Shown piece by piece: positions 586 to 62,744 of a stretch of DNA of 64,000 nucleotides (position 1 is its first letter; every line of letters begins with the position of its first letter). The stretch is from the NCBI GenBank assembly GCA_043814605.1, contig JBDRJV010000017.1:5445-69444 (forward strand). The letters run 5' to 3'. The stretch comes from Candidatus Omnitrophota bacterium. GTDB lineage: Bacteria > Omnitrophota > Gorgyraeia > B26-G9. The position numbers were made by a program, and so were the translations under genes. Under the pieces are notes generated by a model, which had not been told where the DNA came from, made no database searches, and was given only the letters and a program-made list of their open reading frames with translations.

Positions 586-2166
586 ATGAAAATAAATATC
601 TGGGTTATCTTAATTGTGGGAGCCGCAGTATTAAGTGTAATCATCATTGTCAATAGTACAATTACTAAGCTAATGGGCGGATTTATCTTGCTGGTATTAT
701 TAGCCTATTTAGCGGAAGTTTCACGTGAGGAACGTGAACAAATCGCGAAGATGCAAAGAGCGTTAGATAAATTAAGAAATGCCTATAATGAACTTGATGA
801 ACAAGCCAAAATTATTATCCGTACTGACCTTGAACTGAACCGCACCCAGGAAGAACTCGATAAAAAAATCAATGGATTGTATACTTTACACGAATTAGGT
901 AAGTTGATCAGCTCAACATTGGATGTACAGCTTTTATTTTCTCAAATCACAGAACCTTTGATTTTAAAACTGGGTTTTGAGAAGACGATGATTTTTTTAA
1001 AAGAAAAAAGTGACGAAAATCCCCAATGCAAAGCGGCAATTGGATTTGACCATGAGCATATAAAACAGATTGAACAAGCTAATATCACTGCAGAATTTTT
1101 AAAAAATGTATTTGAAAGAGGCAGTTCTGTCTGGGTAAAGAGTGTTGATGGTGCAAGTAATGAGCAGAAAGAATGGCTGAAATTATTTGGTGTCTCTTCA
1201 TTTGTAATTGTTCCCATGGTAATTAAGGAGCATGTCGAAGGGTATATTTTTGTGGGAAATACGACAACCTATAATTATATATCGGAAGGAGATATTGATT
1301 CTCTATTTATTCTTTCTAATCAGCTGGCAATTGCTTTAGAAAATGCCCGCCTTTATGAAGAATTAAAAAAATCACATGATCAATTAGAAATTAGAGTTGA
1401 AGAAAGGACAAAAGAGTTAGCCGAAGCAAATAAGCAATTAGTTCGTTTAAATAAAATGAAATCTGACTTTGTTTCTGCGGTCTCCCATGAATTGCGTACT
1501 CCGCTAACTTCTATAAAAGGGTATGCATCGATACTAAGTGCCGGCCGGCTGGGGCAAGTGAGCGAAGTGCAGTCAGAAAAATTAGATAAAATCAATAAAC
1601 ATAGTGACGAATTAATAAAATTGGTTAATGATTTATTGGATATTGCCAGAATTGAATCCGGCAAGATCGGCATGAGCATAAAACATGCATCCCTGACAGA
1701 AATTATTCGGAGTATTGCGGATTTATTTTTCCCGCAAACTGATGAAAAACATATCGCTTTAAAATTAGAAATGCCTCCGGAACCGATAAAAGTTTGGATG
1801 GATCCGAGTCAAATATCGCGTGTGTTTATTAATCTGATCGGTAATGCGATGAAGTTTACACCGGAAAATGGTTCGATCACCATAAAAGTTAAACCCCTCC
1901 AGGATTACATAAATATTGCAATTACGGATTCAGGAATTGGTATTTCTGAGGAAGATTTACCGCGATTATTTGATGAGTTTTACCGTGTGGATAATGCGAT
2001 TAATGCCGAAAAGAAGGGCACGGGATTAGGGTTACCGCTGGTTAAAAAGATTATTGAGGCCCATAAAGGAAAAATATGGGCTACAAGTGAAGTAGGAAAA
2101 GGTACTACTTTTCATTTTACTCTCTCTTTACACGAAGTTGAAGATTCTCAATTAAACGTCCATTAA
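586..2166 (+). CDS. Sensor histidine kinase, membrane-anchored, GAF + HisKA + HATPase_c
   Basis: N-terminal TM segment and coiled coil. GAF-like region. H-box SHELRTPL. G-boxes GTGLGL near the C-terminus. Starts 7 nt after the FIST gene stop. Confidence 0.85.
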   Translation: MKINIWVILIVGAAVLSVIIIVNSTITKLMGGFILLVLLAYLAEVSREEREQIAKMQRALDKLRNAYNELDEQAKIIIRTDLELNRTQEELDKKINGLYTLHELGKLISSTLDVQLLFSQITEPLILKLGFEKTMIFLKEKSDENPQCKAAIGFDHEHIKQIEQANITAEFLKNVFERGSSVWVKSVDGASNEQKEWLKLFGVSSFVIVPMVIKEHVEGYIFVGNTTTYNYISEGDIDSLFILSNQLAIALENARLYEELKKSHDQLEIRVEERTKELAEANKQLVRLNKMKSDFVSAVSHELRTPLTSIKGYASILSAGRLGQVSEVQSEKLDKINKHSDELIKLVNDLLDIARIESGKIGMSIKHASLTEIIRSIADLFFPQTDEKHIALKLEMPPEPIKVWMDPSQISRVFINLIGNAMKFTPENGSITIKVKPLQDYINIAITDSGIGISEEDLPRLFDEFYRVDNAINAEKKGTGLGLPLVKKIIEAHKGKIWATSEVGKGTTFHFTLSLHEVEDSQLNVH

Positions 2167-2170
2167 ATAG

Positions 2171-3118
2171 GTGATGTATATAATGCGCAAACAAAAAATA
2201 CTAATTATTGATGATGAACCAGACATTCGCGATGTTTTAAAAATTACACTGGAATGTGAAGATTTTGAAGTGTATGAGGCACGTGATGGAGTGGAGGGGC
2301 TTGAGAAAGTTCATAAAAATTCTCCGGATCTGGTTATTTTAGACTATAAAATGCCCAAGATGAATGGGCATGAAGTCTGTCAAATATTAAAAAAAGATAT
2401 TCTTTTGAGGCATATGCCCATTATTATGCTTACGGGAAAAGGAGAGACTCAGGATAAAATAAAAGGCATAAATGCTGGGGCGGATGATTATTTGGTTAAA
2501 CCATTTGACCCGCAGGAGCTGGTTGCGCGTATAAAAATGATTGTACGCAGAAGTACACGTGATTTGGATGCGAATCCATTGAGCCGTTTACCGGGCAATG
2601 TAACGATTATGAGCGAACTAGAAGCCGTAATTAACAGCGGTAAAAATTTTGCTGTCTGCTACCTGGATTTAGATAAATTTAAAGCGTTTAATGATACTTA
2701 CGGTTTTGAACACGGAGATGAGGTAATTCGTGAAACAGCCAGAATTATACTCAGTGTTGTCCAGGAAATTGGGGATAAAGAAGATTTTGTCGGTCATATC
2801 GGCGGTGATGACTATGTAATTTTAACTACAATAGAAAAAGCCGAAGAAATTTGTATAAGAATTATCCGCGAATTTGACGAAGTAGCGCCATCTTTTTATA
2901 ATCAATTAGATAGACAAAGGGGTTTTATCTTAGCGCAAGACAGACAAGGTAATGCCATGCAAATACCGCTAATCTCTGTTTCGATCGGAATTGTTACTAA
3001 CGAAAATCGGCACATTTCTCATGTTGCCGAAATTGGTGAAATCGGCGCTGAACTCAAAAAAGCAGCCAAAGCTAATTCGGGAAGTAATTTTGTTAAGGAT
3101 AGCCGCAAAGCAGAATAA
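2171..3118 (+). CDS. Response regulator, REC domain fused to GGDEF-like domain (signature GGDDY instead of GG[DE]EF)
   Basis: REC motifs (LIIDDE…, DLVILDYKMP, phospho-acceptor Asp context, KPF). C-terminal block LDLDKFKAFNDTYGFEHGDEV … GHIGGDDYVIL aligns to the GGDEF fold, but the A-site reads GGDDY. Confidence 0.8.
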   Translation: MMYIMRKQKILIIDDEPDIRDVLKITLECEDFEVYEARDGVEGLEKVHKNSPDLVILDYKMPKMNGHEVCQILKKDILLRHMPIIMLTGKGETQDKIKGINAGADDYLVKPFDPQELVARIKMIVRRSTRDLDANPLSRLPGNVTIMSELEAVINSGKNFAVCYLDLDKFKAFNDTYGFEHGDEVIRETARIILSVVQEIGDKEDFVGHIGGDDYVILTTIEKAEEICIRIIREFDEVAPSFYNQLDRQRGFILAQDRQGNAMQIPLISVSIGIVTNENRHISHVAEIGEIGAELKKAAKANSGSNFVKDSRKAE

Positions 3119-3126
3119 TATTTATT

Positions 3127-4221
3127 TTAATGACTGAAATAGCTTTTTTCAAATGCGTATTTGCGCGCTGTTCTCAGACTTATTTTTGCGCCATCTAAAA
3201 GATCATGTAATGACTGATCCATTGTTTGCATGCCTTCACGTCCGCCGCTTTCAATCATATTTTTTATTTGAAATGTTTTATTCTCCCGAATAAGATTCCT
3301 AATCCCCGTATTTGCAACCATAACTTCACAGGCCAAATATCTTGTATCTCCATCACGCGACGGAACTAAATTTTGGGAAACAACAATATTTATTGCCTCG
3401 GCAAATTGAATTCTAATCTGAGCCTGTTGTTCTGCAGGGAAAACATCAATCACCCGGCTCACAGACTGCGCTGCCGAACGGGTATGCAAGGTACCAAATA
3501 CAAGGTGACCGGTTTCTGCGGCAGTAACTGCATTAGAAATAGTTTCTAAATCACGCATTTCTCCCACTAAAATAACATCGGGATCTTCTCTTAAAGCCGC
3601 CCGTAAGGCCTGCGCAAAAGTTTTAGAATCAGTTCCAATCTCTCTTTGATTAATAACACTGCGTTTATGTGTATGCAGATATTCTATGGGATCTTCTAAA
3701 GTAATTATATGTGTTTGCCGTTCGTTATTAATTTGATCAATTATCGAAGCTAAGGTTGTGGATTTTCCGCTGCCCGTTGGGCCAGTTACTAAAACCAGCC
3801 CTCTTTGTAATTCGCAAGCTTTTCTCACTGAAGCGGGTAAGCCTAAAGTTTCCAGCGGTTTAATCTTTTGCGGAATTTGCCTTAATGCCGCACATATTCC
3901 ATTACGGTCATGATAAATATTCAACCGGAATCGTGCAGAATTCCCGACTGTGACTCCAAAATCTAGTTCCTGGCCTCTATTATTAAAATCAATTTCCCGG
4001 GCCGGAGGAGTAATACTGGTTAAAATTTCCCGGATGTCATTTTCCTGGAGTTTTTCATTACCCAAAGGCATTAGGCTTTCCGCTTTTCTTACCATGGGCG
4101 GTAAGCCGACGCATAAATGTAAATCTGAAATTTCTTTTTCCAGTATTTCCTTAAATAAATTTCTATATTTTTCCTGCATACAGGATTGATTATAAAATGA
4201 ATTTTCAGTCTCGTCAATCAA
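3127..4221 (-). CDS. pilT: Type IV pilus retraction ATPase PilT/PilU family
   Basis: Walker A GPTGSGKSTT, Walker B ILVGEMRD, and PilT-like length (364 aa) with PilT-like N-terminal domain. Confidence 0.85.
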   Translation of the reverse strand: MIDETENSFYNQSCMQEKYRNLFKEILEKEISDLHLCVGLPPMVRKAESLMPLGNEKLQENDIREILTSITPPAREIDFNNRGQELDFGVTVGNSARFRLNIYHDRNGICAALRQIPQKIKPLETLGLPASVRKACELQRGLVLVTGPTGSGKSTTLASIIDQINNERQTHIITLEDPIEYLHTHKRSVINQREIGTDSKTFAQALRAALREDPDVILVGEMRDLETISNAVTAAETGHLVFGTLHTRSAAQSVSRVIDVFPAEQQAQIRIQFAEAINIVVSQNLVPSRDGDTRYLACEVMVANTGIRNLIRENKTFQIKNMIESGGREGMQTMDQSLHDLLDGAKISLRTARKYAFEKSYFSH

Positions 4222-4422: not shown

Positions 4423-6057
4423 ATGAAAAAAATCACTTTTGGCTTAAGAAGAAAACTGTATTTAGCTAGTATGCTGGTTACGATTATCGGTGCGGTAATC
4501 GTATGCTGGTATGTAATAACTTATTATCGGGTAATTATTACAGAAGATTTAGAGAAAAGGGCAATCACCTTAGCTAAAAATCTGGCACATGAATGTATCG
4601 GACCGATTATCTTAAAAGATGAAAACACTTTATTAAGTTTGGTTAATAGGATTTTAAAAGAACGTGATATAATTTATACGGCTATTTATGATAAAGACGG
4701 AAATATTCTCGTTCAAGGCGGGCCTTTTAATATAGAAAACATTCCTCAGTCAGTTAAGAAAAAATCTTTAATCACCCATGTAAATTTAGTACAAAAATAT
4801 TTATCCGCTAAGGAAAATTTAATTTATGATATTAGTGTTCCCCTGCATACTGAGGGTTCATTAGAGAACAATGATTCCGAAGACAAGAGCATAGATGAAG
4901 AAAGCCTTTTTTTCACAGGTGAAGGAAAAGAAAGTTTTAGTGTAAAAGTAGGATTAGCCAGAATTGGTATTTCTTTTAAAAACAGTAACCAATCAATTAT
5001 TATTCACCGTAATAAAATTATTTTTATAAACTTAGTGTTATACTGTATTTTTTTAATACTCATGCACTTTATTGTAAATTCAATACTTATGCCGATCAGC
5101 CTTTTATTAAAAGGAACTCAGAAAATCGGAGCCGGAGACTTGAACTATAAAGTTAGAATTAAAAGCTCAGATGAAATCGGACAACTGGCTGATTCTTTTA
5201 ATAAAATGGTAGACAATTTAAATATTTCGACAACATCCATTGAAAACCTTAACAAAGAAATTATGGAGAGAAAATTTGCCGAAGAAAAGCTAAAAGAAGC
5301 TTATCAGGAACTGAAAGAAGCCCAGCAGCAGCTTTTACAATCAAGTAAACTTTCCGCTATGGGGCAAATGGCCGCAGGCATATCCCATGAACTTAACCAG
5401 CCCTTGACCGGAATTAAAGGGTTTGCACAAATTTTAGCCATGGATTTAGGTAAAGACAGCCCCTATCTTACAGATGTAAATAATATTATTGAACAGGCAA
5501 ACCGCATGGATAGCATCATTCAAAATGTACGTTTTTTTGCGCGAAAATCAGAATTTAAATTAGAGAAATTAAATGTTAATGATCCGATAAAAAATGCAGT
5601 GAACTTACTTCAGGAGCAATTAAAAATACACAGTATCGAATTAATTTCGGAACTTGATCCGGATTTGCCGCAAATTTATGGAGATAATAATCAATTGCAG
5701 CAGATATTTTTAAATTTAGTAACTAATGGCCGCGATGCGATTGAGATGGCCCATAAATCTGAACCGGGAAAAATTATTATAAAAAGCCAGCAATGCAAAG
5801 AAGATAAATATATTTTAGTTACCTTCGAAGATAATGGCTGTGGAATTCATAAAGAAAATTTGGAAAATATTTTTAATCCTTTTTTTACAACAAAAGCACC
5901 GAATGGGGGAATGGGGTTAGGATTATCCATAGTTTATCGAATTGCTGAAAACCATAAGGCAATTATTGACGTTGAAAGTGAACAGGGGGAATTCACTATT
6001 TTTAAAATTATTTTCCCCGTTGCAGATGATTATATTGCCTTTGATAAAAAAGCTTGA
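4423..6057 (+). CDS. Sensor histidine kinase with two TM segments, extracytoplasmic domain, HAMP, HisKA, HATPase_c
   Basis: TM1 near residue 15 and TM2 near residue 200, followed by a HAMP-like linker (GDLNYKVRIKSSDEIGQLADSFNKM). H-box SHELNQPL. N/G-boxes (NLVTNGRDA, GGMGLGLSI). Confidence 0.85.
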   Translation: MKKITFGLRRKLYLASMLVTIIGAVIVCWYVITYYRVIITEDLEKRAITLAKNLAHECIGPIILKDENTLLSLVNRILKERDIIYTAIYDKDGNILVQGGPFNIENIPQSVKKKSLITHVNLVQKYLSAKENLIYDISVPLHTEGSLENNDSEDKSIDEESLFFTGEGKESFSVKVGLARIGISFKNSNQSIIIHRNKIIFINLVLYCIFLILMHFIVNSILMPISLLLKGTQKIGAGDLNYKVRIKSSDEIGQLADSFNKMVDNLNISTTSIENLNKEIMERKFAEEKLKEAYQELKEAQQQLLQSSKLSAMGQMAAGISHELNQPLTGIKGFAQILAMDLGKDSPYLTDVNNIIEQANRMDSIIQNVRFFARKSEFKLEKLNVNDPIKNAVNLLQEQLKIHSIELISELDPDLPQIYGDNNQLQQIFLNLVTNGRDAIEMAHKSEPGKIIIKSQQCKEDKYILVTFEDNGCGIHKENLENIFNPFFTTKAPNGGMGLGLSIVYRIAENHKAIIDVESEQGEFTIFKIIFPVADDYIAFDKKA

Positions 6058-6148: not shown

Positions 6149-6709
6149 ATGCCGGATACCTCTAAAGGTATGCTTTTTAATATGATCCTTAAGTTTATCC
6201 AACAAAAAGGTAAACCGGAATTAATCCATAAAATCAGCGCACAATTGGATAAACCGCTTAAATATATTGATTTTTTTGATTACCCTGTACAAGAATTAAT
6301 GCTGATTACTGAAAAAGCCGCTAAAGGTGTTTTCCCGGATAAAAAAATCGAAACAGCGTTATATACTCTCGCCCGAGAAACATTCACTATTTTAGCGCAA
6401 ACTCCTATCCTGAAAGCAATGCTACCCCGCGCAAAAAGAAATCCGATGAGTGTAGCGCAAAAAATTCCTTTTTTATACAGACAAATCAACTGTTTTGGTA
6501 ATATTTCAGTAGTTGATGTAAAAGAAAAAAGCTGCCGGATAATTTTTAAAAATTATAAAAGTTTTCCCCATTTACAACAAGGATTTTTACAACAAGCCTG
6601 TGATTATTTAGGTTTTATTACTGAAGTCAGTTTAGATATTATTAAGTTTAAAAATAATGGTAACGGGGACATTTTAACTGATTTTGATTTAAGTTTGAAA
6701 TTAAGTTGA
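6149..6709 (+). CDS. Cassette protein A1: ~186-aa conserved hypothetical, putative small-ligand sensor domain (paralog family of 4 in window)
   Basis: ORF with own RBS. 55-65% identity to 7286..7846 and 8327..8887. Conserved blocks TKGMxFN, GKPLKYIDFFDY, FKNYxSxPxLQQGFLQ, NNGNGDI. No TM segment or signal peptide. Confidence 0.7.
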   Translation: MPDTSKGMLFNMILKFIQQKGKPELIHKISAQLDKPLKYIDFFDYPVQELMLITEKAAKGVFPDKKIETALYTLARETFTILAQTPILKAMLPRAKRNPMSVAQKIPFLYRQINCFGNISVVDVKEKSCRIIFKNYKSFPHLQQGFLQQACDYLGFITEVSLDIIKFKNNGNGDILTDFDLSLKLS

Positions 6710-6731
6710 TTTTAAATCAGAGGAGGGTTCT

Positions 6732-7103
6732 GTGGGTAACCGCATAAAGTGGATAGTGTACAAGAACAAACGAATTCTTTTCCACGATTACTCAGGCATT
6801 AGAGGGTTTCAGGGTGAAGGGGAGCAATTAGCACAAGAGGTGAATGAGTTTGTAGAGAAATTGACAGAATATAATATTTTAGAATTAGTTGATGTAAGGA
6901 ATTCATTTGGTGATTTAGAATCAGTAAAAAGGCTTAAAGAAATATCTAAACGATTAAAGCCGCGCATAAAAAAATCTGCAGTAATCGGCGTTAGCGGGAT
7001 AAAAAAAGTTATTTTAGATGCAATTAATACTTTTTCCGAAAGAAAAATTAAACCGTTTAAAACTGAGGAAGAAGCAAAAGAATGGCTGATTTTGGAAGAT
7101 TAA
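6732..7103 (+). CDS. Cassette protein B1: ~123-aa STAS-like (anti-sigma-antagonist-like) protein, GTG start
   Basis: AGGAGGG RBS 4 nt before GTG. Conserved LELVDVRNSFGDLESV (resembles the DLSxVxFxDSSG phosphoserine loop) and a C-terminal …EEEAKEWL helix typical of STAS/SpoIIAA fold. ~70% identity to the copy-2 partner. Confidence 0.6.
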   Translation: MGNRIKWIVYKNKRILFHDYSGIRGFQGEGEQLAQEVNEFVEKLTEYNILELVDVRNSFGDLESVKRLKEISKRLKPRIKKSAVIGVSGIKKVILDAINTFSERKIKPFKTEEEAKEWLILED

Positions 7104-7145
7104 ATCGTTTTAAAGGTTTATAATATTATAATTTTTGGTTTATAC

Positions 7146-7240
7146 ATCCGCGGCCTAAAACCGCGCCCATTTATGGCGCGGATAAAAGGAGGCCGCTTGA
7201 GTATTCCACCCCAGGAACCACGGGCTTTAGCCCGTGGGGG
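7146..7240. repeat. GC-rich nested palindromic element (two strong hairpins) in the intergenic spacer between cassette copies 1 and 2
   Basis: Inner stem CCGCGCC-catttat-GGCGCGG (7161..7181) is nested inside GCGGCC…GGCCGC (7150..7196). A second hairpin CCACGGGC-ttta-GCCCGTGG lies at 7218..7237. GC content is far above local background. Confidence 0.45.
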
Positions 7241-7285
7241 TTACATTTCTGGATAATTTCTAAAAAGAAATCGAGAGAATTTTAA

Positions 7286-7846
7286 ATGCCGGCAACAACA
7301 AAAGGAATGTTTTTTAATGTGGCTTTTAAACTGATTACGGCAAAAGGTCACGCGGAATTAATAGAAAAAATCAGTAAAAAGCTGGGCAAACCTCTTAAAT
7401 ATATTGATTTTTTTGATTATCCCATAGAGGAATTTATGCTGATTGTCGAAGAGGCGATTAAATATATTTACCCGGATAAAAAATTCGAAGAAGCATTATA
7501 TATTTTATCCGAAGAATCATTTGACCTGATCATGCAGACCCCGATAATTAAAGCAGTATTATCCGGAGCAAAGAAAAATATGCAAAATATTGCAAAACGC
7601 ATTCCTTTTATCTATGAACAATTCAATCACTTTGGAAAAATTTCTATTATTGATTTAAAAGAAAAAAACTGTGTGATTGCTTTTAAAAATTATAAAACTT
7701 ATCCGGAACTGCAGCAGGGTTTTTTACAAAGAACCTTTGATTTTCTAAAGCTTAATCACACTGTAGAACTAAACATCCATAAATTTAAAAATAATGGAAA
7801 CGGCGATATTACCGCTGATTTTGATATAAGCTTAAAATGGGGTTAA
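7286..7846 (+). CDS. Cassette protein A2 (paralog of 6149..6709)
   Basis: Same conserved blocks and length (186 aa) as A1. Own start context. Confidence 0.7.
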   Translation: MPATTKGMFFNVAFKLITAKGHAELIEKISKKLGKPLKYIDFFDYPIEEFMLIVEEAIKYIYPDKKFEEALYILSEESFDLIMQTPIIKAVLSGAKKNMQNIAKRIPFIYEQFNHFGKISIIDLKEKNCVIAFKNYKTYPELQQGFLQRTFDFLKLNHTVELNIHKFKNNGNGDITADFDISLKWG

Positions 7847-7868
7847 TTTTTTATAAAGGGTGGTTTAT

Positions 7869-8240
7869 ATGACTAATCGGATAAGGTGGATAGTATATAA
7901 AAACAAGCGTATTCTTCTAGTTGATCTTTCTGGGATTAGAGGGTTTAAGGGCGAAGGGGAGCAATTAGCAAAAGCCGCGGCTGATTTTGTGGATAAATTA
8001 AGAGAATATGAGCTCATCGAATTAATTGATGTCCGGAATTCATTTGGTGATTTAGAATCAGTGAAAACAATGAAAGAACTATCTAAAAAATTAAAGCCGC
8101 ACATAAAGAAATCTGCAATCATTGGAGTAAGTGGGATAAAAAAAGTTATTCTCGATGCGATTAATTCTTTTGCCGAAAGAAAGATTAAACCGTTTAATAC
8201 AGAGGAAGAAGCAAAAGAATGGCTGATTTTAGAAGATTGA
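7869..8240 (+). CDS. Cassette protein B2, STAS-like (track start 7860 is GTG; ATG at 7869 preferred)
   Basis: MTNRIRWIVYKNKRIL…VRNSFGDLESVK…EEEAKEWLILED. ~70% identical to B1. Confidence 0.6.
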   Translation: MTNRIRWIVYKNKRILLVDLSGIRGFKGEGEQLAKAAADFVDKLREYELIELIDVRNSFGDLESVKTMKELSKKLKPHIKKSAIIGVSGIKKVILDAINSFAERKIKPFNTEEEAKEWLILED

Positions 8241-8326
8241 ATGTTAAAAAATTTTAAAGCATTAAAGGTTTAATAATTATTCGCTGAATTATTTAAATAA
8301 TAACTATTATGGGGAAGAGATTTTAA

Positions 8327-8887
8327 ATGCCAGAAACAGCAAAAGGTATACTTTTTAATGTAAATTTAAAATTCATTAAAAATAAGAATAAACCAGAATT
8401 ACTGGAAAAAATCAGTAAAAAGCTGGGCAAACCGCTTAAATATATTGATTTTTTTGATTATCCTGCCCAGGAATTATTGGTTATTGTTGAGGAAATTGCT
8501 AAAAATATTTTTCCCCATAAAAAAACTGACGAAGTTTACTATTTATTAGCACAGGAAAACTTTGCCACTCTTGCGCAAACACCGATTCTAAAAGCAATGC
8601 TGCCTCGCGCAAAAAAAAATCCGCGGATTATTGCGCCAAAAATTCCGTTTTTATATAAGCAAATTTACCGCTTCGGAGAAATTTCTGTGGTTGACCTAGA
8701 AGAAAAAAGCTGCCGTATAGTTTTTAAAAATTATGTTAGTTTGCCGCAGTTACAACAGGGTTTTTTGCAAAAAGTTTCTGATGTATTAGGGTTTAATCAT
8801 AAAGTAGGCTTAAATATCCACAAATTTATAAATAATGGTAACGGAGACATAAAAGCAGATTTTGATTTAACCCTTCGCTGGGATTAA
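8327..8887 (+). CDS. Cassette protein A3 (paralog)
   Basis: 186 aa, same conserved blocks. Confidence 0.7.
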   Translation: MPETAKGILFNVNLKFIKNKNKPELLEKISKKLGKPLKYIDFFDYPAQELLVIVEEIAKNIFPHKKTDEVYYLLAQENFATLAQTPILKAMLPRAKKNPRIIAPKIPFLYKQIYRFGEISVVDLEEKSCRIVFKNYVSLPQLQQGFLQKVSDVLGFNHKVGLNIHKFINNGNGDIKADFDLTLRWD

Positions 8888-8919
8888 AAATACTTAATTA
8901 TAAGGAGTAATAAAGTTTT

Positions 8920-9291
8920 ATGAGTAACCGCATACGCTGGATTGATTATAAGGGAAAAAAAATACTTGTGCACGATTATTCTGAACTTAAAGGATTTAAT
9001 AGGGGGGGAGAACAAGTTTTAAATGAAGTGTCTAATTTCATTGATAAATTAACTGAGAATAATATACTCGAATTAATTGATGTGAGAAATTCTTATGGCG
9101 ATTTAGACTCAATAAAAAAAATGAAGGAAATGTCCAAAAAAATGCAGCCGCATGTAAAGAAATGTGCAATAATCGGGGTGACGGGTGTAAAAAAAGTTCT
9201 TTTAGATACAATTAATGTTTTTTCCCAGCGCCAGATTAAACCGTTTGCCACAGAAGAGGAAGCCAAAGAATGGCTGGTGGCTGAGGATTAG
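8920..9291 (+). CDS. Cassette protein B3, STAS-like
   Basis: 123 aa with NSYGDLDS loop and C-terminal EEEAKEWLVAED. More diverged than B1/B2. Confidence 0.6.
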   Translation: MSNRIRWIDYKGKKILVHDYSELKGFNRGGEQVLNEVSNFIDKLTENNILELIDVRNSYGDLDSIKKMKEMSKKMQPHVKKCAIIGVTGVKKVLLDTINVFSQRQIKPFATEEEAKEWLVAED

Positions 9292-41618: not shown

Positions 41619-41633
41619 AAAAGTGAGGTAATA

Positions 41634-43031
41634 ATGGCTAAGGATTCAATGGATTTTTATGCAGAGATGAGAGCGAATACACGTATCCGGTCCCGCATTA
41701 AAGTTATGATTAAAATAATTAATGAAGACGGGTCTTTGTCTGTAGCCAAAGAAACCACGGCGCGCGATATCAGTGTGCAGGGGATGTATTTTTTATTCCC
41801 AGAACCTTTAGCTTTCAATAAAAAAGTAAATGTTACTTTCCGACTGCCTAAATTAACTAATCCCGTTGAAATTATCGGCCGCGTTATTCGTATTGAAGAA
41901 GGAGAAAATAATAAATTTGGCGTGGGAATTATTTTTGATGAAATAAAAAATGATAATCAAGAAACAATTTTCCGACAAATTGAATCAATGGATATTTTAA
42001 GATTATTGCAAATTACCGCGCAAAAAAAAGCTTCTGATCTGCATTTAACCTATAATCGTCCTCCGATTCTTAGGTTGCATGGCAGATTGCACCCGTTAGA
42101 AATGGATCCTTTAAATACAGTTGAATTAAAAAATATGATTTATAGTATTTTAGATGATGAGCAAATAGCACGATTTGAAAAGTTTAAAGAATTAGATTTT
42201 GCTTTTTCCCCTAATCCCGATTTAAGGTTTCGGGCAAATATTCATGTTCAAAGAGGTAATGTTGAGGGTACTTTCCGGGTTATTATGCCTGATTTGAAAA
42301 CTACTCAGGAATTAGGACTGCCGAGTGTTGTTGAAAAACTCGCCTTGCTGAAAAAAGGAATTGTCGTTATTGCCGGACCTACCGGTTCAGGCAAAACAAC
42401 AACCTTGGCGGCAATGGTTGATATTATCAATCGCAGAAAAGAATCTGTAATTATTTGTCTTGAAGATCCTATTGAATATATCCACACAAATCTCAATTCA
42501 ATAATTAAACAAAGGGAAATAGGCACAGATACTTTATCTTTTTCTGTTGCATTAAAAAGAACATTACGCCAGGATCCAGATGTAATTCTTGTGGGGGAAT
42601 TATTAGATAATGAAACCGTAAGAACTGTTATCACAGCTGCAGAAACCGGACACCTAGTTTTAACATCTTTACATGCTCCAGATACAGTACAAGCGATTGA
42701 CCGTTTAATCAGTATTTTCCCACCGCAACAACGGCATCAGGCTTGTATACAGCTGGGCAATGTTCTGCAAGGCATTGTTACACAAGCACTTATACCAAAA
42801 AAAGACCGGGAGACAAGGGTTGTAGCAACAGAAGTTATGATTATGACTGATGCTATCCGAAATCATATTCGTGAGGGGCAAACTATTCAAATCCCTTCAT
42901 CAATACAAACAGGAGCTCGTTATGGAATGCATACTATGACCGAAAGTTTTAAGCGTCTGTATAATGCTAATATTATTTCTAAGGAAACAGCTATTGATTA
43001 CTGTCCGGAATTAGCGCAAATTTTAACTTGA
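41634..43031 (+). CDS. PilZ-domain-fused PilT-like type IV pilus retraction ATPase
   Basis: N-terminal ~110 aa with PilZ-like RxxxR…D-x-S-x-x-G motif (RIRSRIKV … ARDISVQGMYF). Then PilT core with Walker A GPTGSGKTTT, Walker B ILVGELLD, His/Asp boxes. Confidence 0.8.
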   Translation: MAKDSMDFYAEMRANTRIRSRIKVMIKIINEDGSLSVAKETTARDISVQGMYFLFPEPLAFNKKVNVTFRLPKLTNPVEIIGRVIRIEEGENNKFGVGIIFDEIKNDNQETIFRQIESMDILRLLQITAQKKASDLHLTYNRPPILRLHGRLHPLEMDPLNTVELKNMIYSILDDEQIARFEKFKELDFAFSPNPDLRFRANIHVQRGNVEGTFRVIMPDLKTTQELGLPSVVEKLALLKKGIVVIAGPTGSGKTTTLAAMVDIINRRKESVIICLEDPIEYIHTNLNSIIKQREIGTDTLSFSVALKRTLRQDPDVILVGELLDNETVRTVITAAETGHLVLTSLHAPDTVQAIDRLISIFPPQQRHQACIQLGNVLQGIVTQALIPKKDRETRVVATEVMIMTDAIRNHIREGQTIQIPSSIQTGARYGMHTMTESFKRLYNANIISKETAIDYCPELAQILT

Positions 43032-43067: not shown

Positions 43068-43580
43068 TTGTTGTTAACAAGAAGGATACGAAAAATGATA
43101 GACAAAACAATTGAAAGCAGGATAAAACAATTAAGTGAATTTGTAGAATTATGGGCAGAGTTTTATGAATTATATAAACGTGCTACTAATCAACAAACAT
43201 TCTCTGAAGAAGAAGAAAAAAATTTTTTAGAATTAAAAAGTAGTTTAGCGAGGAAATACCAAGGTCTTATGGATTCTCTAGGCATAAAGCCAACTGCCGA
43301 AGACCGAACCTTTGATGTTATTTCACAAGTTATGAGTCTTAAAAGCATCATTTCATTATCTCCATTACAAATGGAAAAAATGGAAAACGATTGGCATAAT
43401 TCTTACATAACTTTAAATAAAATAATGGGTTCCTTAGAAAACAGAAAAAATGAATTAGCAAAAATTAATGTATTTTCATTATTTATAAAAAGATTGTTTA
43501 CAAATCCTTTTTTTGCGTTAATACTCATAATTATTGTGATTTCTTTTATTTACTATATTGTAATAAATATTTTTGCCTAA
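43068..43580 (+). CDS. Hypothetical protein with C-terminal TM helix
   Basis: ORF only. Coiled-coil-like N-terminal part. Confidence 0.45.
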   Translation: MLLTRRIRKMIDKTIESRIKQLSEFVELWAEFYELYKRATNQQTFSEEEEKNFLELKSSLARKYQGLMDSLGIKPTAEDRTFDVISQVMSLKSIISLSPLQMEKMENDWHNSYITLNKIMGSLENRKNELAKINVFSLFIKRLFTNPFFALILIIIVISFIYYIVINIFA

Positions 43581-43910: not shown

Positions 43911-43996
43911 GTGGGTCATAATCTAAAAAAAATAAATTTTTAACTTTAAACCCCAATCATTACGTATTGGGGTTTTATGTTTTGAAAGTAATAAAA

Positions 43997-45289: not shown

Positions 45290-46443
45290 GTGATAAAAGA
45301 AACTTTTCAATCCACTCAAGATGCTAGTTTAGCACCATATGCAACTTTAAGTAAAAATACTAAAGGCAGAAAATTTCCTGAACCAGAACACGGTTATCGA
45401 GCTATTTTTCAAAGAGACCGGGACAGGATTATTCATTCGCATGCATTCAGGCGTCTGCAATATAAAACTCAAGTTTTTGTCAACCATGAAGGAGACCAAT
45501 ATCGCACTAGACTCACGCATACACTAGAAGTTGTCCAAATTGCCAGAACTATTGCCAGAGCTCTGCATTTAAATGAAGACCTGGTTGAAGCAATTGCTTT
45601 AGCGCATGATATCGGACACACTCCTTTTGGTCATGCCGGGGAAGATGCTTTACGTGAGCTAATGGCAGATCACGGGGGATTCGAACATAATCGGCAAGGA
45701 TTAAGAGTGGTTGATTATTTAGAAGAAAGATATCCTGATTTTAAGGGTTTAAATTTAACCTGGGAAGTGAGAGAAGGGATCATTAAACATGCTTCAACTT
45801 ATGATATTCCCTTAATCACAGAGGAATTTAATGCGAAAAAAAATCCATCTTTAGAGGCTCAGGTTGTAGATATTGCCGATGAAATTGCTTATAATAACCA
45901 TGATTTAGATGATGGCATAAGTAGTGGCTTGATCAAAGAAGGGGATTTAAATAATATTGCTATCTGGACTCAAGCTCAGGAAACTCTGGCCTTAAAAAAT
46001 AAAAAAATTCCGCCAATATAAAAAAATGTCAGATTATCCGTTCGCTTATTAATTTTCAAGTAACTGCTTTGGTAGAAAATTCCTTAAAAAAAATAGTAGA
46101 ACTCGGCATTGATTCTCCGGATAAAACAGCAGCCCAGGATATTAAAATCATTGATTTTCATTCCTCTGAGATAAAGCAAAATATTCAAGAATTAAAAACT
46201 TTTTTGTACAAAAAATTATATAGAAATTATAAAGTTGTCCGAATGTCCAGCAAGGCGCAGAGATTTTTAAAAGAATTATTTAACGTATACCTTAAAAATC
46301 CTGAACAATTACCCAGTGACTATAACCAGAGGATCCAGTCTGAAGGGTTATATCAAGTTATTTGTGATTATATTGCGGGAATGACTGATCGTTATGCTCT
46401 GGATGAATACAAAAAACTATTCCATCCCTGGGAAAAAGTTTAA
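45290..46443 (+). pseudogene. dGTP triphosphohydrolase-like HD-domain gene split by a frameshift (45290..46021 frame 2; 46003..46443 frame 1)
   Basis: N-part carries HD motifs (HSHAFRRL…, [12 protein letters not shown]). C-part carries the family's C-terminal TDRYA motif. Frames switch within A6/A7 homopolymer runs at ~45994..46007. Confidence 0.55.
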
Positions 46444-46561
46444 TTAAATCTTAATCTATTATATTAGCTTGACAACTTAACTAAACAGTTTTATAATAAA
46501 ATAATGTTAATACAAGGTTTTTTAAAGGAATAAAAAAACTTTTAAACAGTGAGGGAAATGT

Positions 46562-46945
46562 ATGGATACTGAAAAAAATGTTGAGGAAAAAAGAAAGTTT
46601 AAAAGAGTTTTCGTCCCAGGGCTAAAAGCCAGTTTTAAGCTTTTAGATCCCCGTACATGGTCAACTTACCACGATAAAAAAATAACTAATGTGGCAAATA
46701 TAAGCCTGGGGGGGCTGGCTTTAAAAACAAACACATTACTTTCGTTACAATCTCCAATTGGATTAGATATAAAAGTTGATTCCGCAGATGATCCCATCAG
46801 GACTTTTGGCCGTGTCGCCTGGATTAAAAAGGAAGCTAATGCAAATGCAGAAGATGACTATACTCTAGGTGTCAGTTTTTCTTGGTGGAAAAAAGAAGAA
46901 GATAAAAAAATAATATTTGATGCAATACAAAAACAAATCGCTTAG
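46562..46945 (+). CDS. Stand-alone PilZ domain protein
   Basis: KRKFKRVFV (RxxxR-like) and NISLGGLAL (D/N-x-S-x-x-G) motifs. Confidence 0.7.
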   Translation: MDTEKNVEEKRKFKRVFVPGLKASFKLLDPRTWSTYHDKKITNVANISLGGLALKTNTLLSLQSPIGLDIKVDSADDPIRTFGRVAWIKKEANANAEDDYTLGVSFSWWKKEEDKKIIFDAIQKQIA

Positions 46946-46962: not shown

Positions 46963-48462
46963 ATGAAAAGTTCTTACCAAGATGAATTATTTAATAAAGT
47001 TATTAATCATTCTAGCTGGCAAAATGAAGTCGAAAATTTTTCGAAAATTGTCGGGGGAACTGATTATTATATTATCCCGCATTGTCTGTATGATTCTGGC
47101 CACGGACAAAAAAAATTTATACCCAAGAAAAATACTAAAAAAAATATCAATTCCATACTAAATAAATTATTAACAAAAGCAAAAAAAGAATACCATCCAC
47201 AATATTTTACGGAAAACAACGGCAAAATCCATTACTGCATCCCCATAAAAAATGGCGAACAAATTTACGGCTATGTGGGGATTTGCAACCTGCGTAATAA
47301 AATTTCACAAAGTTTACTAGATTTATTTAATACTTTTACTTGTACTACTATTGAAAATGTACAAAAAGAAATTGAGGTAACCAAGCTTTATGAAACAATC
47401 CGCCCAAAAACAATCGCACTTTCGACTGTACACACAATTGGCAGAATTATTAGTTCCACTTTAGAAATTGATGAGCTGCTGCCGCGAATCGCCCGGCTTA
47501 GTTTACAAGTATTAAGGGCGCAAAGATGCGTAATACTGCTCGTTGATAAATATAAAAAGAATTTAATTCCCTATGCAATTGTAGATGTAAAAAACAAAAA
47601 AGCTGCACAAGAAACATTAAAAATGGGGCAGGGGATTGCCGGTAAAGTTGTAAAAACTGGAAATGCAATTGTACAGCCGAAATATTTATGCGTTCCTTTA
47701 ATTGCAGAAGAGCACATCATTGGAGCAATCAACATGTCTTATCGGCTAGATGGAAAAGCTTTTAGTATTTTTGATAAGGAAATTCTGGTTACACTTTCAG
47801 AACAAGCTGTAATTGCAATCAAAAATGCCCAACTTTACGACGAGCAAGAAAAGTTAACTTTGAACAGTATTAAAGCTTTGGCTTCAATCTTAAGCTCAGG
47901 GGTTGCGGACAATTATGGGCGATCTGATCTGTTTATTAATATAACAATGTCGATCGGCATGGAACTAAAATTAAGTTCTGATCAAATGCGCATGTTATAT
48001 TATGCATCAATTTTACATAATGTGAGTCAAATGGGATTACCGGATAAAATTTTAAGTAAAGCTACAAAATTAACGGGAAGAGATTATAAAATAATTAAGG
48101 AACAACACATTAAGGGAGCACAACTAATCCGGCCGATGGGGGGTAGGCTTAAAGCTGTTTTACCAATAATAATTCATCATCATGAGCGCTATGATGGCAA
48201 TGGATACCCTAGCGGTTTAAAAGCCGAAGATATCCCTCTCGGAGCACGAATCCTGGCGGTAGCGGACTCTTTTGAAGCAATGTTATCTAAACGGCCTTAC
48301 CGGAGAAAAATGTCAATTTCGCAAGCAGTTTCTGAAATAGTTAGATTTAGCGGTGAACAATTTGATCCGATTGTTGTTGATGCTTTTGCGCGTGTAATTC
48401 ACAGGTTCAAAAATAAAATTTTCAGAGGGAAACAAAATGCATGGATTTGGAAAAAATTATAA
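46963..48462 (+). CDS. GAF-domain HD-GYP phosphodiesterase
   Basis: GAF region in the middle. HD-GYP signature HHHERYDGNGYP. Confidence 0.85.
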   Translation: MKSSYQDELFNKVINHSSWQNEVENFSKIVGGTDYYIIPHCLYDSGHGQKKFIPKKNTKKNINSILNKLLTKAKKEYHPQYFTENNGKIHYCIPIKNGEQIYGYVGICNLRNKISQSLLDLFNTFTCTTIENVQKEIEVTKLYETIRPKTIALSTVHTIGRIISSTLEIDELLPRIARLSLQVLRAQRCVILLVDKYKKNLIPYAIVDVKNKKAAQETLKMGQGIAGKVVKTGNAIVQPKYLCVPLIAEEHIIGAINMSYRLDGKAFSIFDKEILVTLSEQAVIAIKNAQLYDEQEKLTLNSIKALASILSSGVADNYGRSDLFINITMSIGMELKLSSDQMRMLYYASILHNVSQMGLPDKILSKATKLTGRDYKIIKEQHIKGAQLIRPMGGRLKAVLPIIIHHHERYDGNGYPSGLKAEDIPLGARILAVADSFEAMLSKRPYRRKMSISQAVSEIVRFSGEQFDPIVVDAFARVIHRFKNKIFRGKQNAWIWKKL

Positions 48463-55537: not shown

Positions 55538-57085
55538 ATGAGAAGGAAAACTCTGACAATATTTTTTGCGGATGTGCAAGGCTATACTATCCGCACTGGG
55601 CGTCAGACCAGAGAGCAAAACGAAATTTTCGTAAAAGAAATCCGCACTTTTGTTGAAGATAATATTAAGGAAAAAGGCGGCACTTTTGTCAAAGCCATGG
55701 GTGATGGATTTCTGGGGACTTTTGAATCCCCTACGGATGCTGTTGGCTGCGGCCAGCAAATGCAGAAAAAAATTGATGAACGCAATTCTAATGTACTCAG
55801 ACAAGATAATTTTATCCGGTTCAGGATAGGAATCAGTACAGGTGAAGTCACTTTGGATGATTCCGGTGATGTTTTTGGTGATGCGGTAAATATCGCTGCC
55901 CGTATTCAAAAATTCGCATCTCCGAATGATGTTTATATTTCTGAGGCCACTTACCTGGCCATGAATAAATCTGAAATTAAAGCCCAGGATTTAGGCCCGC
56001 AAAGATTTAAAAATGTACTCCACGAAATCAGAGTTTATAAAGTTTTTCAGGGCTTGCCGGAATTATCCGAGTTGCCCTTAGGTCCTGATAAAAACAAAAA
56101 ATCTCCCTTTTTAAAAAAGATACTAATCCCCGTTGCAATTATTACAGTTATCGTAGTTTTATTCTTATTTCTAAAGAGCCTCTCCCCTGCCCGCCTTAAT
56201 AATAAAGAATATAATTTTGAACATAATTATCAGCCGGATATTGAAAAATTAATGGCTGATGGCAATTTCGGACCGATTATTGGCTGGGCGGAAAGCCAAT
56301 TAGAAAAAACCCCGCAGGATATAAATATGCATGAATTATTAGCAGAAGTTTTTCAAAAAATGCGCGACTGGGATCAAGCTGAATTTCATTTGAAAAGTAT
56401 TGCAGAAATAGTTCCGAATGAGCCTTTTGCCTATATGGCCATGGCAGATATTTTTGAACAAACTGGGCGTAATGAACAGGCAATTCAAATGCTGGCTGAA
56501 TATATTAATCGCGAACCAAATCAATATAAACGAAGAAAAGCACTTGACCGCATGAAGGATATTGAAGCCAGAATTAAAGAACAAGCCTTAGAGCTTAATC
56601 AGCATACACCGACAGAATATAAACCACAATATAATAATCAGCCTCTGCCAGCGCCTTACCCTAATGAAAATAATCAAAATAACGCTTTTAGGGATTCACG
56701 CGATTGGCGAGAAAATGCTCCTATTCCTGACATTCAAAGATTAATGCAAGAAGGAAATTATGGGGAAATAATTGAGTGGGCTCAAGGCGAACTTGAACGA
56801 AATCCGGATAATTTAGAAGCCCATGAGTTATTAAGCAGAGTTTATTTGGAAATGCGAAACTGGGGACAAGCCGAAATGCATTTAAGAGAAGTGATGCAGA
56901 TGATGCCTGATAATACCCTGCTTTATTTTCGCTTAGCGGTGATTTACGAAAAGGCCAACCAAATCGATAATGCTATCCATACATTGCGTTTGTTTATAAA
57001 TAAGGAAAATGATCCGCAAAAAAAACAAAAAGCAATCCGAAAAGTAAAGCAATTAGAACGCCGTAAATACCATCCTCAATTTTGA
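55538..57085 (+). CDS. Class III adenylate/guanylate cyclase (CHD) – TM – tandem TPR-like modules
   Basis: FADVQGYT, metal-binding Asp, GDGF, and FRIGISTGEV…GDAVNIAARI blocks. One TM at ~190. Two ~150-aa internally repeated TPR-like segments. Confidence 0.8.
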   Translation: MRRKTLTIFFADVQGYTIRTGRQTREQNEIFVKEIRTFVEDNIKEKGGTFVKAMGDGFLGTFESPTDAVGCGQQMQKKIDERNSNVLRQDNFIRFRIGISTGEVTLDDSGDVFGDAVNIAARIQKFASPNDVYISEATYLAMNKSEIKAQDLGPQRFKNVLHEIRVYKVFQGLPELSELPLGPDKNKKSPFLKKILIPVAIITVIVVLFLFLKSLSPARLNNKEYNFEHNYQPDIEKLMADGNFGPIIGWAESQLEKTPQDINMHELLAEVFQKMRDWDQAEFHLKSIAEIVPNEPFAYMAMADIFEQTGRNEQAIQMLAEYINREPNQYKRRKALDRMKDIEARIKEQALELNQHTPTEYKPQYNNQPLPAPYPNENNQNNAFRDSRDWRENAPIPDIQRLMQEGNYGEIIEWAQGELERNPDNLEAHELLSRVYLEMRNWGQAEMHLREVMQMMPDNTLLYFRLAVIYEKANQIDNAIHTLRLFINKENDPQKKQKAIRKVKQLERRKYHPQF

Positions 57086-62180: not shown

Positions 62181-62744
62181 TTATTTCCATTCTAAAAAAC
62201 ATTCAAAATCAGCCACAATATCCCCTTTATTTTCCAACTCTTCGAACCGATGGACAGTTAGAGAAACAGTTCCGATTAGCCCTAGAACCTCCATCCCTTG
62301 AGTAATTAAACCATGATGGTAATGAGGATAATTTTTATAATTTTTAAATATGATTTTATTTTTTTTCTCCGCTATTTCTTCAAACTCTACACTGCCAAAT
62401 TTGTTAATTTGCATATACCAAGAAGGAATTTTTTTAAATGTTTCGGCCGGATTATTTTTTAGAAAAGGCAGTGTTACCTTGCCTAATAAACTCTTTGCAA
62501 ATGTGTAAAATGCAATTTTGCCAAGTTCAAACATGCCTTGTTCTCTGGTTTTTTCAGGGAAAATATACTTTATGCATAACTGTTGGATTAAAACCAGCTC
62601 CTGGATAGAATAATCTTTAAACCCGATATATTCTAGCGGCTTGCCTAATTCCTTGGCTATTTGATTTTTTGTTTGTTCCCCAGATTTTTCCGTAATAAAT
62701 TTTATTACATCATTAAAATACATTCCCTTTGTGGTTTCCTGCAT
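62181..62744 (-). CDS. Cassette protein A4: diverged orphan paralog of the 186-aa family (no STAS partner)
   Basis: Shares TKGMxFN, GKPLxYIxFxDY, IIFKNYKNYP, GDIVADF blocks. ~35-40% identity to A1-A3. Confidence 0.6.
   Translation of the reverse strand: MQETTKGMYFNDVIKFITEKSGEQTKNQIAKELGKPLEYIGFKDYSIQELVLIQQLCIKYIFPEKTREQGMFELGKIAFYTFAKSLLGKVTLPFLKNNPAETFKKIPSWYMQINKFGSVEFEEIAEKKNKIIFKNYKNYPHYHHGLITQGMEVLGLIGTVSLTVHRFEELENKGDIVADFECFLEWK

Follow-up and report, generated by a model that had tools for sequence, protein, structure and literature searches.

A PilZ domain at the N-terminus of a PilT-type ATPase in Omnitrophota, a candidate c-di-GMP-gated retraction motor

Can a pilus retraction motor carry its own receptor for cyclic di-GMP (c-di-GMP)? 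The question is raised by one gene in a 64,000-nucleotide stretch of DNA (the window; GC content ~33%) from a Candidatus Omnitrophota bacterium, contig JBDRJV010000017.1, which encodes a PilZ domain followed by a PilT-type ATPase. Where c-di-GMP is known to control type IV pili, it does so via the extension motor or adaptors (MshEN, FimX-PilZ-PilB), and the first-pass annotation of the window agrees with the literature in naming MshEN and separate PilZ/FimX proteins as the established routes to the pilus ATPases. Its central claim, a PilZ domain at the N-terminus of a PilT-type ATPase, is borne out by hidden Markov model scores, by the AlphaFold 2 (AF2) fold, by the invariance of the ligand motifs and by the nearest solved PilTs. 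We interpret the protein as a PilZ-gated hexameric motor of the PilT family, in which c-di-GMP would act on the retraction motor without an adaptor, and give this reading a probability of roughly 0.6. The gene and the elements on which the interpretation draws are listed here.

41634..43031, + strand: PilZ-PilT fusion gene (open reading frame, ORF; PF07238 and PF00437; TIGR01420 above cutoff)
41625..41628, + strand: GAGG Shine-Dalgarno sequence, read from the sequence, separated by 5 nt from the ATG (7-8 nt as usually counted)
41634..41987, + strand: PilZ domain, residues 1-118 (AF2 model and Foldseek; tail 1-16 disordered, barrel 22-104)
41670..41684, + strand: RxxxR c-di-GMP motif, R13-A-N-T-R17 (alignment of fusion homologues)
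41766..41783, + strand: [D/N]hSxxG c-di-GMP motif, D45-I-S-V-Q-G50 (alignment of fusion homologues)
41988..42299, + strand: PilT N-terminal (N2D-type) domain, residues 119 to ~222 (TIGR01420 match from residue 121; 3jvu alignment; confidence score, pLDDT, of 75-88 in the full-length AF2 model)
42300..43028, + strand: PilT C-terminal ATPase domain (CTD), residues 223-465 (phmmer against the PDB)
42375..42398, + strand: Walker A, G248-P-T-G-S-G-K-T255 (read from the sequence)
42579..42608, + strand: Walker B segment, D316-V-I-L-V-G-E322-L-L324-D325 (homologue alignment; catalytic Glu kept)
42852..42875, + strand: AIRNLIRE-like helix motif, A407-I-R-N-H-I-R-E414 (7 of 8 positions match AIRNLIRE)

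The fusion gene is a single ORF that begins with ATG, encodes 465 aa plus a stop codon and starts 15 nt after the stop codon of dnaE. The GAGG Shine-Dalgarno sequence upstream of the ATG supports the annotated start and, with it, the reality of the N-terminal extension. An identical protein at NCBI (P0001) is named only 'PilT/PilU family type 4a pilus ATPase [Candidatus Omnitrophota bacterium]'. Pfam recognizes a PilZ domain (PF07238) at residues 16-117 (46.4 bits against a gathering threshold of 22.5, E=5.3e-12, model positions 6-101 of 102) and a T2SSE domain (PF00437) at residues 235-417 (E=1.7e-38), and this two-domain architecture was found in about 52 of the best 120 homologues. A survey of the distribution of the fusion, proposed with the first-pass annotation, showed that it recurs. 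When residues 1-230 were searched with phmmer against 1.84 billion cluster representatives, roughly 40 full-length fusion clusters at 50% identity were obtained, 27-46% identical to the query, with unbroken matches that span the PilZ domain and extend into the N2D of PilT. A scan of the GTDB collection, using one narrow pattern that reached the immediate clade only, identified the fusion in at least 10 species-level metagenome-assembled genomes (MAGs) of that clade, 9 titled Omnitrophota and 1 Planctomycetia. The named carriers comprise Omnitrophota, a 'PVC group' MAG, candidate division Zixibacteria and a Patescibacteria-group MAG. Judged from the sequences, the two domain scores together with the recurrence of the architecture are far beyond chance.

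As the sequence comes from a MAG and a neighboring HD/dGTPase-like gene looks frameshifted, we considered whether gene calling, a frameshift or assembly could have joined a pilZ and a pilT gene artificially. However, the same uninterrupted 460-475-aa architecture occurs in dozens of independent assemblies (NCBI, JGI, ENA, Logan) and in 13 fetched loci, and a good ribosome-binding site precedes the start of the gene while none precedes M119, the first residue of the PilT part. The recurrence across assemblies effectively refutes an artefact, to which we assign a negligible probability.

The junction between the two parts is sharp. The segment M119-D120-I-L-R-L-L aligns with the extreme N-terminus of stand-alone PilTs (one of them, P0185, begins MDIKKLL), residue 122 of the fusion maps to chain residue 4 of 3jvu, and in the full-length AF2 model the PilZ helix 109-118 abuts the PilT helix 121-130. 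From alignment and model, it looks as if a PilZ domain has been joined without a linker to an apparently complete PilT. An internal start at M119, which would give a PilZ-less isoform, was also considered and ruled out: no Shine-Dalgarno-like sequence lies before this internal ATG, which makes such an isoform unlikely, and among the 52 fusion homologues used for motif counts (same architecture, 55-100% identity overall), 10 have V, L or I in place of M119.

Structure prediction of the N-terminal domain had been set beforehand as a check, with a non-PilZ barrel lacking the RxxxR and DxSxxG contacts in orthologues as the outcome that would speak against the claim, and it returned a confident PilZ barrel. 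For residues 1-120, AF2 modeling from 32 fusion N-domains gave a model with a mean pLDDT of 83.7, in which residues 21-110 are at about 90 or above. Its strands (22-29, 39-46, 50-55, 64-69, 78-89 and 95-104) and C-terminal helix (109-119) reproduce the six-stranded PilZ barrel layout. When the model was compared with the PDB using Foldseek, the top 41 matches were all PilZ domains, most of them solved with c-di-GMP bound. The best match was MotI/DgrA (5vx6, E=3e-5), and others included Alg44 (4rt0), BcsA (5ej1/4p00), MrkH, VCA0042, PP4397, YcgR and PlzA.

Both c-di-GMP motifs, RxxxR and [D/N]hSxxG (the latter in the refined form given by Galperin and Chou), are present. The first-pass annotation had located RxxxR at R17-I-R-S-R21, which is displaced downstream by four residues: 14 of the 52 homologues have K or H at R21, and the conserved pair is therefore R13-R17. 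R17 is kept in 52/52 and R13 in 51/52, the sole exception being an N-terminally truncated partial sequence, and among 27 diverse representatives R17 never changes and R13 is conserved to at least 90%. In the second motif, position 45 is D or N in every homologue, I46 and G50 are likewise kept in 52/52 and S47 in 51/52. These positions stay while the rest of the N-domain drops to 26-56% identity among homologues, and most of the distant representatives (27-46% identity) keep both motifs as well.

A PilZ domain need not bind c-di-GMP to be useful, and this one could instead be a structural or protein-interaction module that works independently of the ligand, like the PilB-binding PilZ or the ligand-less PilZN-type domains. 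Its nearest solved chains by sequence profile are indeed Xanthomonas PilZ proteins of the non-binding kind that dock on PilB (3dsg, 3cnr and 4f48), although these matches are weak (E = 0.2-0.7), and some distant members (P0142, P0143, P0146, P0149, P0154, P0158 and P0161) show no recognizable RxxxR...[DN]xSxxG pattern. We nevertheless regard a ligand-independent module as improbable. R13, R17, D/N45, I46, S47 and G50 are essentially invariant in the 52 homologues amid otherwise diverging sequence, and the structural neighbors belong to the ligand-binding class. According to Galperin and Chou, PilZ domains within fusion proteins keep c-di-GMP binding, and non-binding PilZ-related domains characteristically lack both motifs. 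Overall, sequence and model indicate that the N-domain is a genuine PilZ domain, predicted to be ligand-competent.

The remainder of the protein is PilT-like over its whole length. It matches the PilT/PilU family model TIGR01420 of NCBIfam with 407.6 bits (cutoff 319.1) at residues 121-458, covering model positions 2-339 of 343. When the core (residues 121-465) was searched against the PDB with phmmer, the highest scores were obtained for Geobacter PilT (5zfq, 322 bits), PilT4 (6ojx, 314 bits) and P. aeruginosa PilT (3jvu, 279 bits), followed by Thermus and Aquifex PilT at about 271 bits each, compared to 239 bits for PilU (9n32) and ~90 bits for PilB. By these scores, the solved structures nearest to it are PilT retraction motors; PilU comes after them and PilB far behind. 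The catalytic motifs are in place: Walker A residues G248, T250, G251, G253 and K254 are invariant in the orthologue alignment, an Asp box (LEDPIEY) and a His box (TGHLVLTSLH) are present with key residues invariant among orthologues, and the Walker B glutamate E322 is kept in 52/52 fusion homologues. AIRNLIRE in the C-terminal helix is a PilT motif, and the fusion family follows the related pattern A-[IVA]-[RK]-[NS]-[HIL]-I-R-E at this site. No T2SSE_N/MshEN domain (N1D/GSPII) was found in the fusion protein by Pfam at E values up to 1.

How might c-di-GMP reach the motor? In the PilZ-gated motor that we propose, the ligand would be bound by the RxxxR tail and the [D/N]hSxxG strand, whereupon the disordered N-terminal tail would become ordered over the barrel, as happens elsewhere among PilZ proteins. 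Since the C-terminal helix of PilZ leads directly into the opening helix of the PilT N2D, the ordering could be relayed to N2D, with PilZ being repositioned relative to it. Such a movement may bias the open/closed interfaces between N2Dn and CTDn+1 and so gate either ATPase cycling or docking on the PilC platform, and pilus retraction would thus be switched by the cellular level of c-di-GMP. McCallum et al. found that PilT works by switching between open and closed interfaces of N2Dn-CTDn+1 packing units, that N2D point mutations change twitching and that PilC binding needs particular conformations. For the sign of the effect we can offer a guess by analogy: under the logic that high c-di-GMP favors attachment, and with YcgR and MotI acting as brakes, retraction would be inhibited at high c-di-GMP.

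The surroundings of the fusion gene bear on this proposal in both directions, and the other genes of the window that matter here are as follows.

3127..4221, - strand: canonical single-domain PilT paralogue (T2SSE 164 bits, TIGR01420 445 bits, GEMRD, GIRNLIRE)
43095..43580, + strand: hyp170, 161 aa counted from the likely ATG, hydrophobic helix at the C-terminus (linked to the fusion through adjacency and identity, as an association only)
46562..46945, + strand: stand-alone PilZ protein (PF07238 34.3 bits; R-K-F-K-R and N-I-S-L-G-G)
46963..48462, + strand: GAF-HD_5 (HD-GYP-type) protein (PF13487 128 bits plus GAF), directly after the stand-alone PilZ gene

Gene order around the fusion is the same in 11/11 Omnitrophota-clade loci (guaA-dnaE-PilZ-PilT-hyp170-HU-hisS-(HD)-PilZ-GAF/HD_5-SPOR). 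The stand-alone PilZ gene is syntenic in 10 of these, the 11th locus ending before that position. The conserved neighborhood therefore holds a second canonical PilZ and an HD-GYP-type protein in these clade loci, which speaks for a PilZ-gated motor. The first-pass annotation had described this pair as a free PilZ beside an HD-GYP phosphodiesterase; both domains are real, but the enzymatic part of the description is in doubt. The GAF-HD_5 protein has an intact HHExxDGxGYP motif and an HN in place of the HD metal-binding dyad (..ILHNVSQMG..), a substitution conserved in 8/8 orthologous loci covering the site (L003-L010), and may for that reason not be an active phosphodiesterase. From its sequence, it may be an inactive HD-GYP protein that serves as a sensor or receptor.

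At the other end of the window, the second PilT is canonical as had been claimed (its TIGR01420 score is the 445 bits listed above), but lies on the minus strand. It could supply messenger-independent retraction. The further suggestion of a c-di-GMP-tuned choice between the two motors has to be called speculation, its only basis being two PilT paralogues 38 kb apart in a window without pilus machinery. Convergent with this pilT and downstream of a GAF histidine kinase gene (586..2166) is a gene for a REC-GGDEF response regulator (2171..3118, +). It reads GGDDY against the GG(D/E)EF consensus and matches the Pfam GGDEF model partially (positions 20-116 of 161), making its cyclase activity doubtful from sequence. 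No c-di-GMP riboswitch was found in the window, where Rfam gives two tRNAs only.

Several observations weigh against a c-di-GMP-gated retraction motor. The full-length AF2 model is poor, with a mean pLDDT of 66; because the CTD is at ~50, it is no guide to the relative geometry or packing of the domains. No PilB, PilC, PilM-Q or pilin genes are present among the annotated ORFs of the window, and no pilus operon context was seen at any locus examined, the neighbors being housekeeping genes (guaA, dnaE, HU, hisS). The GGDDY and HN-GYP proteins look degenerate and may both be inactive, so the window does not show c-di-GMP synthesis in this organism. Finally, the motor identity itself, well founded on TIGR01420 and the solved PilTs, has to be qualified at the Walker B segment. 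The arginine of GE-x-R-D, which is conserved in the canonical PilTs inspected and may or may not define the family, is gone in 52/52 fusion homologues, position 324 being L in 34 and Q in 18. The fusion reads GELLD, compared to GEMRD in the canonical paralogue of the window and GELRD in Geobacter PilT 5zfq. A string search of the literature found no account of the function of this arginine.

These features lead to the strongest competing explanation, in which c-di-GMP is bound and the ATPase is not a retraction motor. The protein would then be a diverged PilT-like paralogue with another role, be it a PilU-like accessory, an extension or bifunctional motor, the motor of another type IV pilus-like or secretion system, or a weak ATPase serving as a regulator or plug of the platform. 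The clade-wide loss of the arginine fits such a role, as does the context of the His box, HAP in the fusion as opposed to HT in canonical PilT, and so does the housekeeping setting with no pilus genes nearby. [quoted passage not shown] In addition, the Walker B glutamate has been lost from distant proteins that share this architecture (P0155, P0156, P0158, P0172, P0198, P0224 and P0249, with sequences such as LDQIPD and VSQMPD), which indicates that the family can evolve non-catalytic forms. RxxxR/[DN]xSxxG is kept in 4/7 of these, and one, P0198, is an Omnitrophota MAG protein; they may be pseudo-ATPase c-di-GMP receptors. On the other hand, the fusion of the window passes TIGR01420 by a wide margin, scores 270-320 bits with solved retraction PilTs versus 239 with PilU and ~90 with PilB, and keeps the catalytic Glu, the Walker A Lys and the His box, which are invariant in its clade. 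It also retains the AIRNLIRE-like motif, which PilU is not known to carry. Moreover, pilT genes are commonly unlinked from pil operons. We consider a role outside retraction unlikely, if still a serious contender, and favor the PilZ-gated retraction motor.

Other features of the neighborhood are recorded here for their own sake. hyp170, directly downstream of the fusion and with no Pfam or NCBIfam match, is 74-82% identical in 10/11 Omnitrophota-clade loci and 59% identical in L013, which is generally above the conservation of hisS (~60%). It was examined as a cross-phylum partner of the fusion and ruled out, as it has no similarity to the protein downstream in Zixibacteria and is not downstream in L001 and L014. 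A terminator-like hairpin (43948..43975, +, a 10-bp stem with a T-rich tail, a consensus match only) lies just past the HU gene, and from its position the genes guaA-dnaE-PilZ-PilT-hyp170-HU could form one transcription unit. A perfect 12/12 sigma-70 consensus is present at 46469..46497, upstream of the stand-alone PilZ gene; promoter matches in the window as a whole are not enriched over shuffled sequence (64 vs 51±8). Two ORFs, HD (45290..46021, +) and HD_assoc (46069..46443, +), stand in place of one intact HD/dGTPase-like gene, whose counterpart in L003 is a single 381-aa gene. The two starts are 779 nt apart, which is not a multiple of 3, so the gene looks frameshifted, either as a pseudogene or through an assembly error.

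Beyond the immediate clade the setting changes. A 58%-identical orthologue from an unclassified MAG adjoins ubiD/E/X/A genes instead, a class II aminoacyl-tRNA synthetase gene (tRNA-synt_2b + HGTP_anticodon) follows the fusion in the Patescibacteria-labelled locus, and in the Zixibacteria locus an HD_5 gene lies two genes upstream. Some distant fusion members retain canonical GE[VIM]RD. In a crude neighbor-joining tree of the ATPase cores the fusions were paraphyletic around canonical PilTs, with long branches, a topology that does not discriminate between a single and a multiple origin of the fusion. A profile search with 27 diverse full-length fusions yielded no new fusion taxonomy, having been flooded by tandem PilT-PilT proteins of 720-750 aa, because two cores score twice; with the PilZ N-domain alone, 433 word-index candidates gave 1 match. 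The tandem proteins form a family of their own (712-800 aa; P0035-P0120 and P0297-P0349) with two complete PilT cores per polypeptide, from MAGs labelled Polyangiaceae, Byssovorax, Oligoflexia, Armatimonadetes and others.

Further signaling genes lie elsewhere in the window. A gene at 55538..57085 (+) combines a class III adenylate/guanylate cyclase domain with a long TPR array, another nucleotide-second-messenger component. Downstream of a HAMP histidine kinase gene (4423..6057), three tandem pairs occupy 6149..9291 (+), each made up of a DUF2378 protein (186 aa) and, after it, a SpoIIAA-like (STAS-type) protein (123-126 aa), the third pair being inferred from ORF sizes only. A fourth DUF2378 copy is found at the opposite end of the window (62181..62744, -).

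How does the fusion compare with known systems? Its layout most resembles the MshE/PilB-type motors with MshEN (V. cholerae MshE, C. perfringens PilB2, M. xanthus PilB and T. thermophilus PilF). Both have the hexameric ATPase layout of the PilT/VirB11 superfamily, with a receptor N-terminal to the N2D-CTD motor, an arrangement that brings the messenger to MshE-type motors without an adaptor and would do so in the fusion. In contrast to the helical MshEN with its two 24-residue motifs, the receptor of the fusion is a PilZ beta-barrel with RxxxR/[D/N]hSxxG, and the core is of the retraction type whereas MshE-type motors drive extension. As the tandem RLGxx(L/V/I)(L/V/I)xxG(I/F)(L/V)xxxxLxxxLxxQ motifs of MshEN are absent, the fusion is MshE-like in layout and not a member of the MshE group. 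Its PilZ domain sits in the topological position of MshEN/N1D in extension ATPases. A 2024 review takes an extra N-terminal domain as the mark that separates extension from retraction ATPases, and the fusion departs from this rule: it has no N1D, but PilZ occupies that place. The same review describes retraction ATPases as promiscuous.

In the FimX-PilZ-PilB system of Xanthomonas and Pseudomonas, too, a PilZ-fold protein ties a type IV pilus motor ATPase to c-di-GMP. There, the PilZ protein is separate and lacks the binding motifs, the EAL domain of FimX binds the ligand and the target is PilB. In the fusion, PilZ carries the motifs itself, is covalently fused and would target a PilT-type motor. 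With both c-di-GMP motifs present and conserved, the fusion does not belong to the eponymous PilZ class (PA2960/XAC1133). It shares the full N2D+CTD core and its motifs with canonical PilTs (5zfq, 6ojx, 3jvu/3jvv and Aquifex 2ewv), and differs from them by the 118-residue PilZ extension, by Leu or Gln for the GE-x-R-D arginine and by HAP for HT. YcgR and MotI (DgrA) are likewise PilZ c-di-GMP receptors that directly control a motility motor, but they are separate PilZN-PilZ proteins acting on the flagellar stator or rotor, not domains of an ATPase, and have no link to pili. BcsA, Alg44, PilZ-DnaK and the PilZ-sigma54 activators provide precedents for a canonical PilZ fused to the enzyme it gates. 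The lists of PilZ fusion partners in the literature consulted, including the survey by Galperin and Chou, contain no PilT or secretion-superfamily ATPase, and no paper containing the term 'PilZ-PilT' was found in the searchable literature. In a 2023 review, PilT is listed among the non-binders of c-di-GMP, and Floyd et al. (2020) left open whether c-di-GMP affects PilT retraction independently of MshE.

PilZ-PilT is thus a conserved and apparently undescribed architecture made of two well-known parts. Since the proteins are public under generic names, the architecture is probably visible in Pfam and InterPro listings, and since PilZ is known to fuse with many different partners, it would come as no great surprise to specialists. 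The generic names ('PilT/PilU family' at NCBI, 'twitching motility protein PilT' at JGI) mask a regulatory architecture of a distinct kind, common among Omnitrophota. A naturally occurring PilT that bears a canonical PilZ would be a direct test case, easy to purify, for control of retraction by the messenger, and the fusion would offer a route to learning how an input at the N-terminus biases the PilT hexamer between its open and closed states. If c-di-GMP does gate this motor, the fusion would provide the first example of a receptor for c-di-GMP built into a retraction ATPase. More tentatively, as a wider possibility that we consider less likely than not, PilZ-PilT proteins may constitute a multi-phylum family of second-messenger-gated retraction motors in uncultivated bacteria (Omnitrophota, Zixibacteria and Patescibacteria-labelled MAGs), including catalytically dead derivatives (Walker B Glu lost, PilZ motifs kept) that could serve as plugs under c-di-GMP control and compete for the PilC platform. 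In the small-celled, possibly host-attached Omnitrophota, c-di-GMP would then directly decide between holding on and pulling in.

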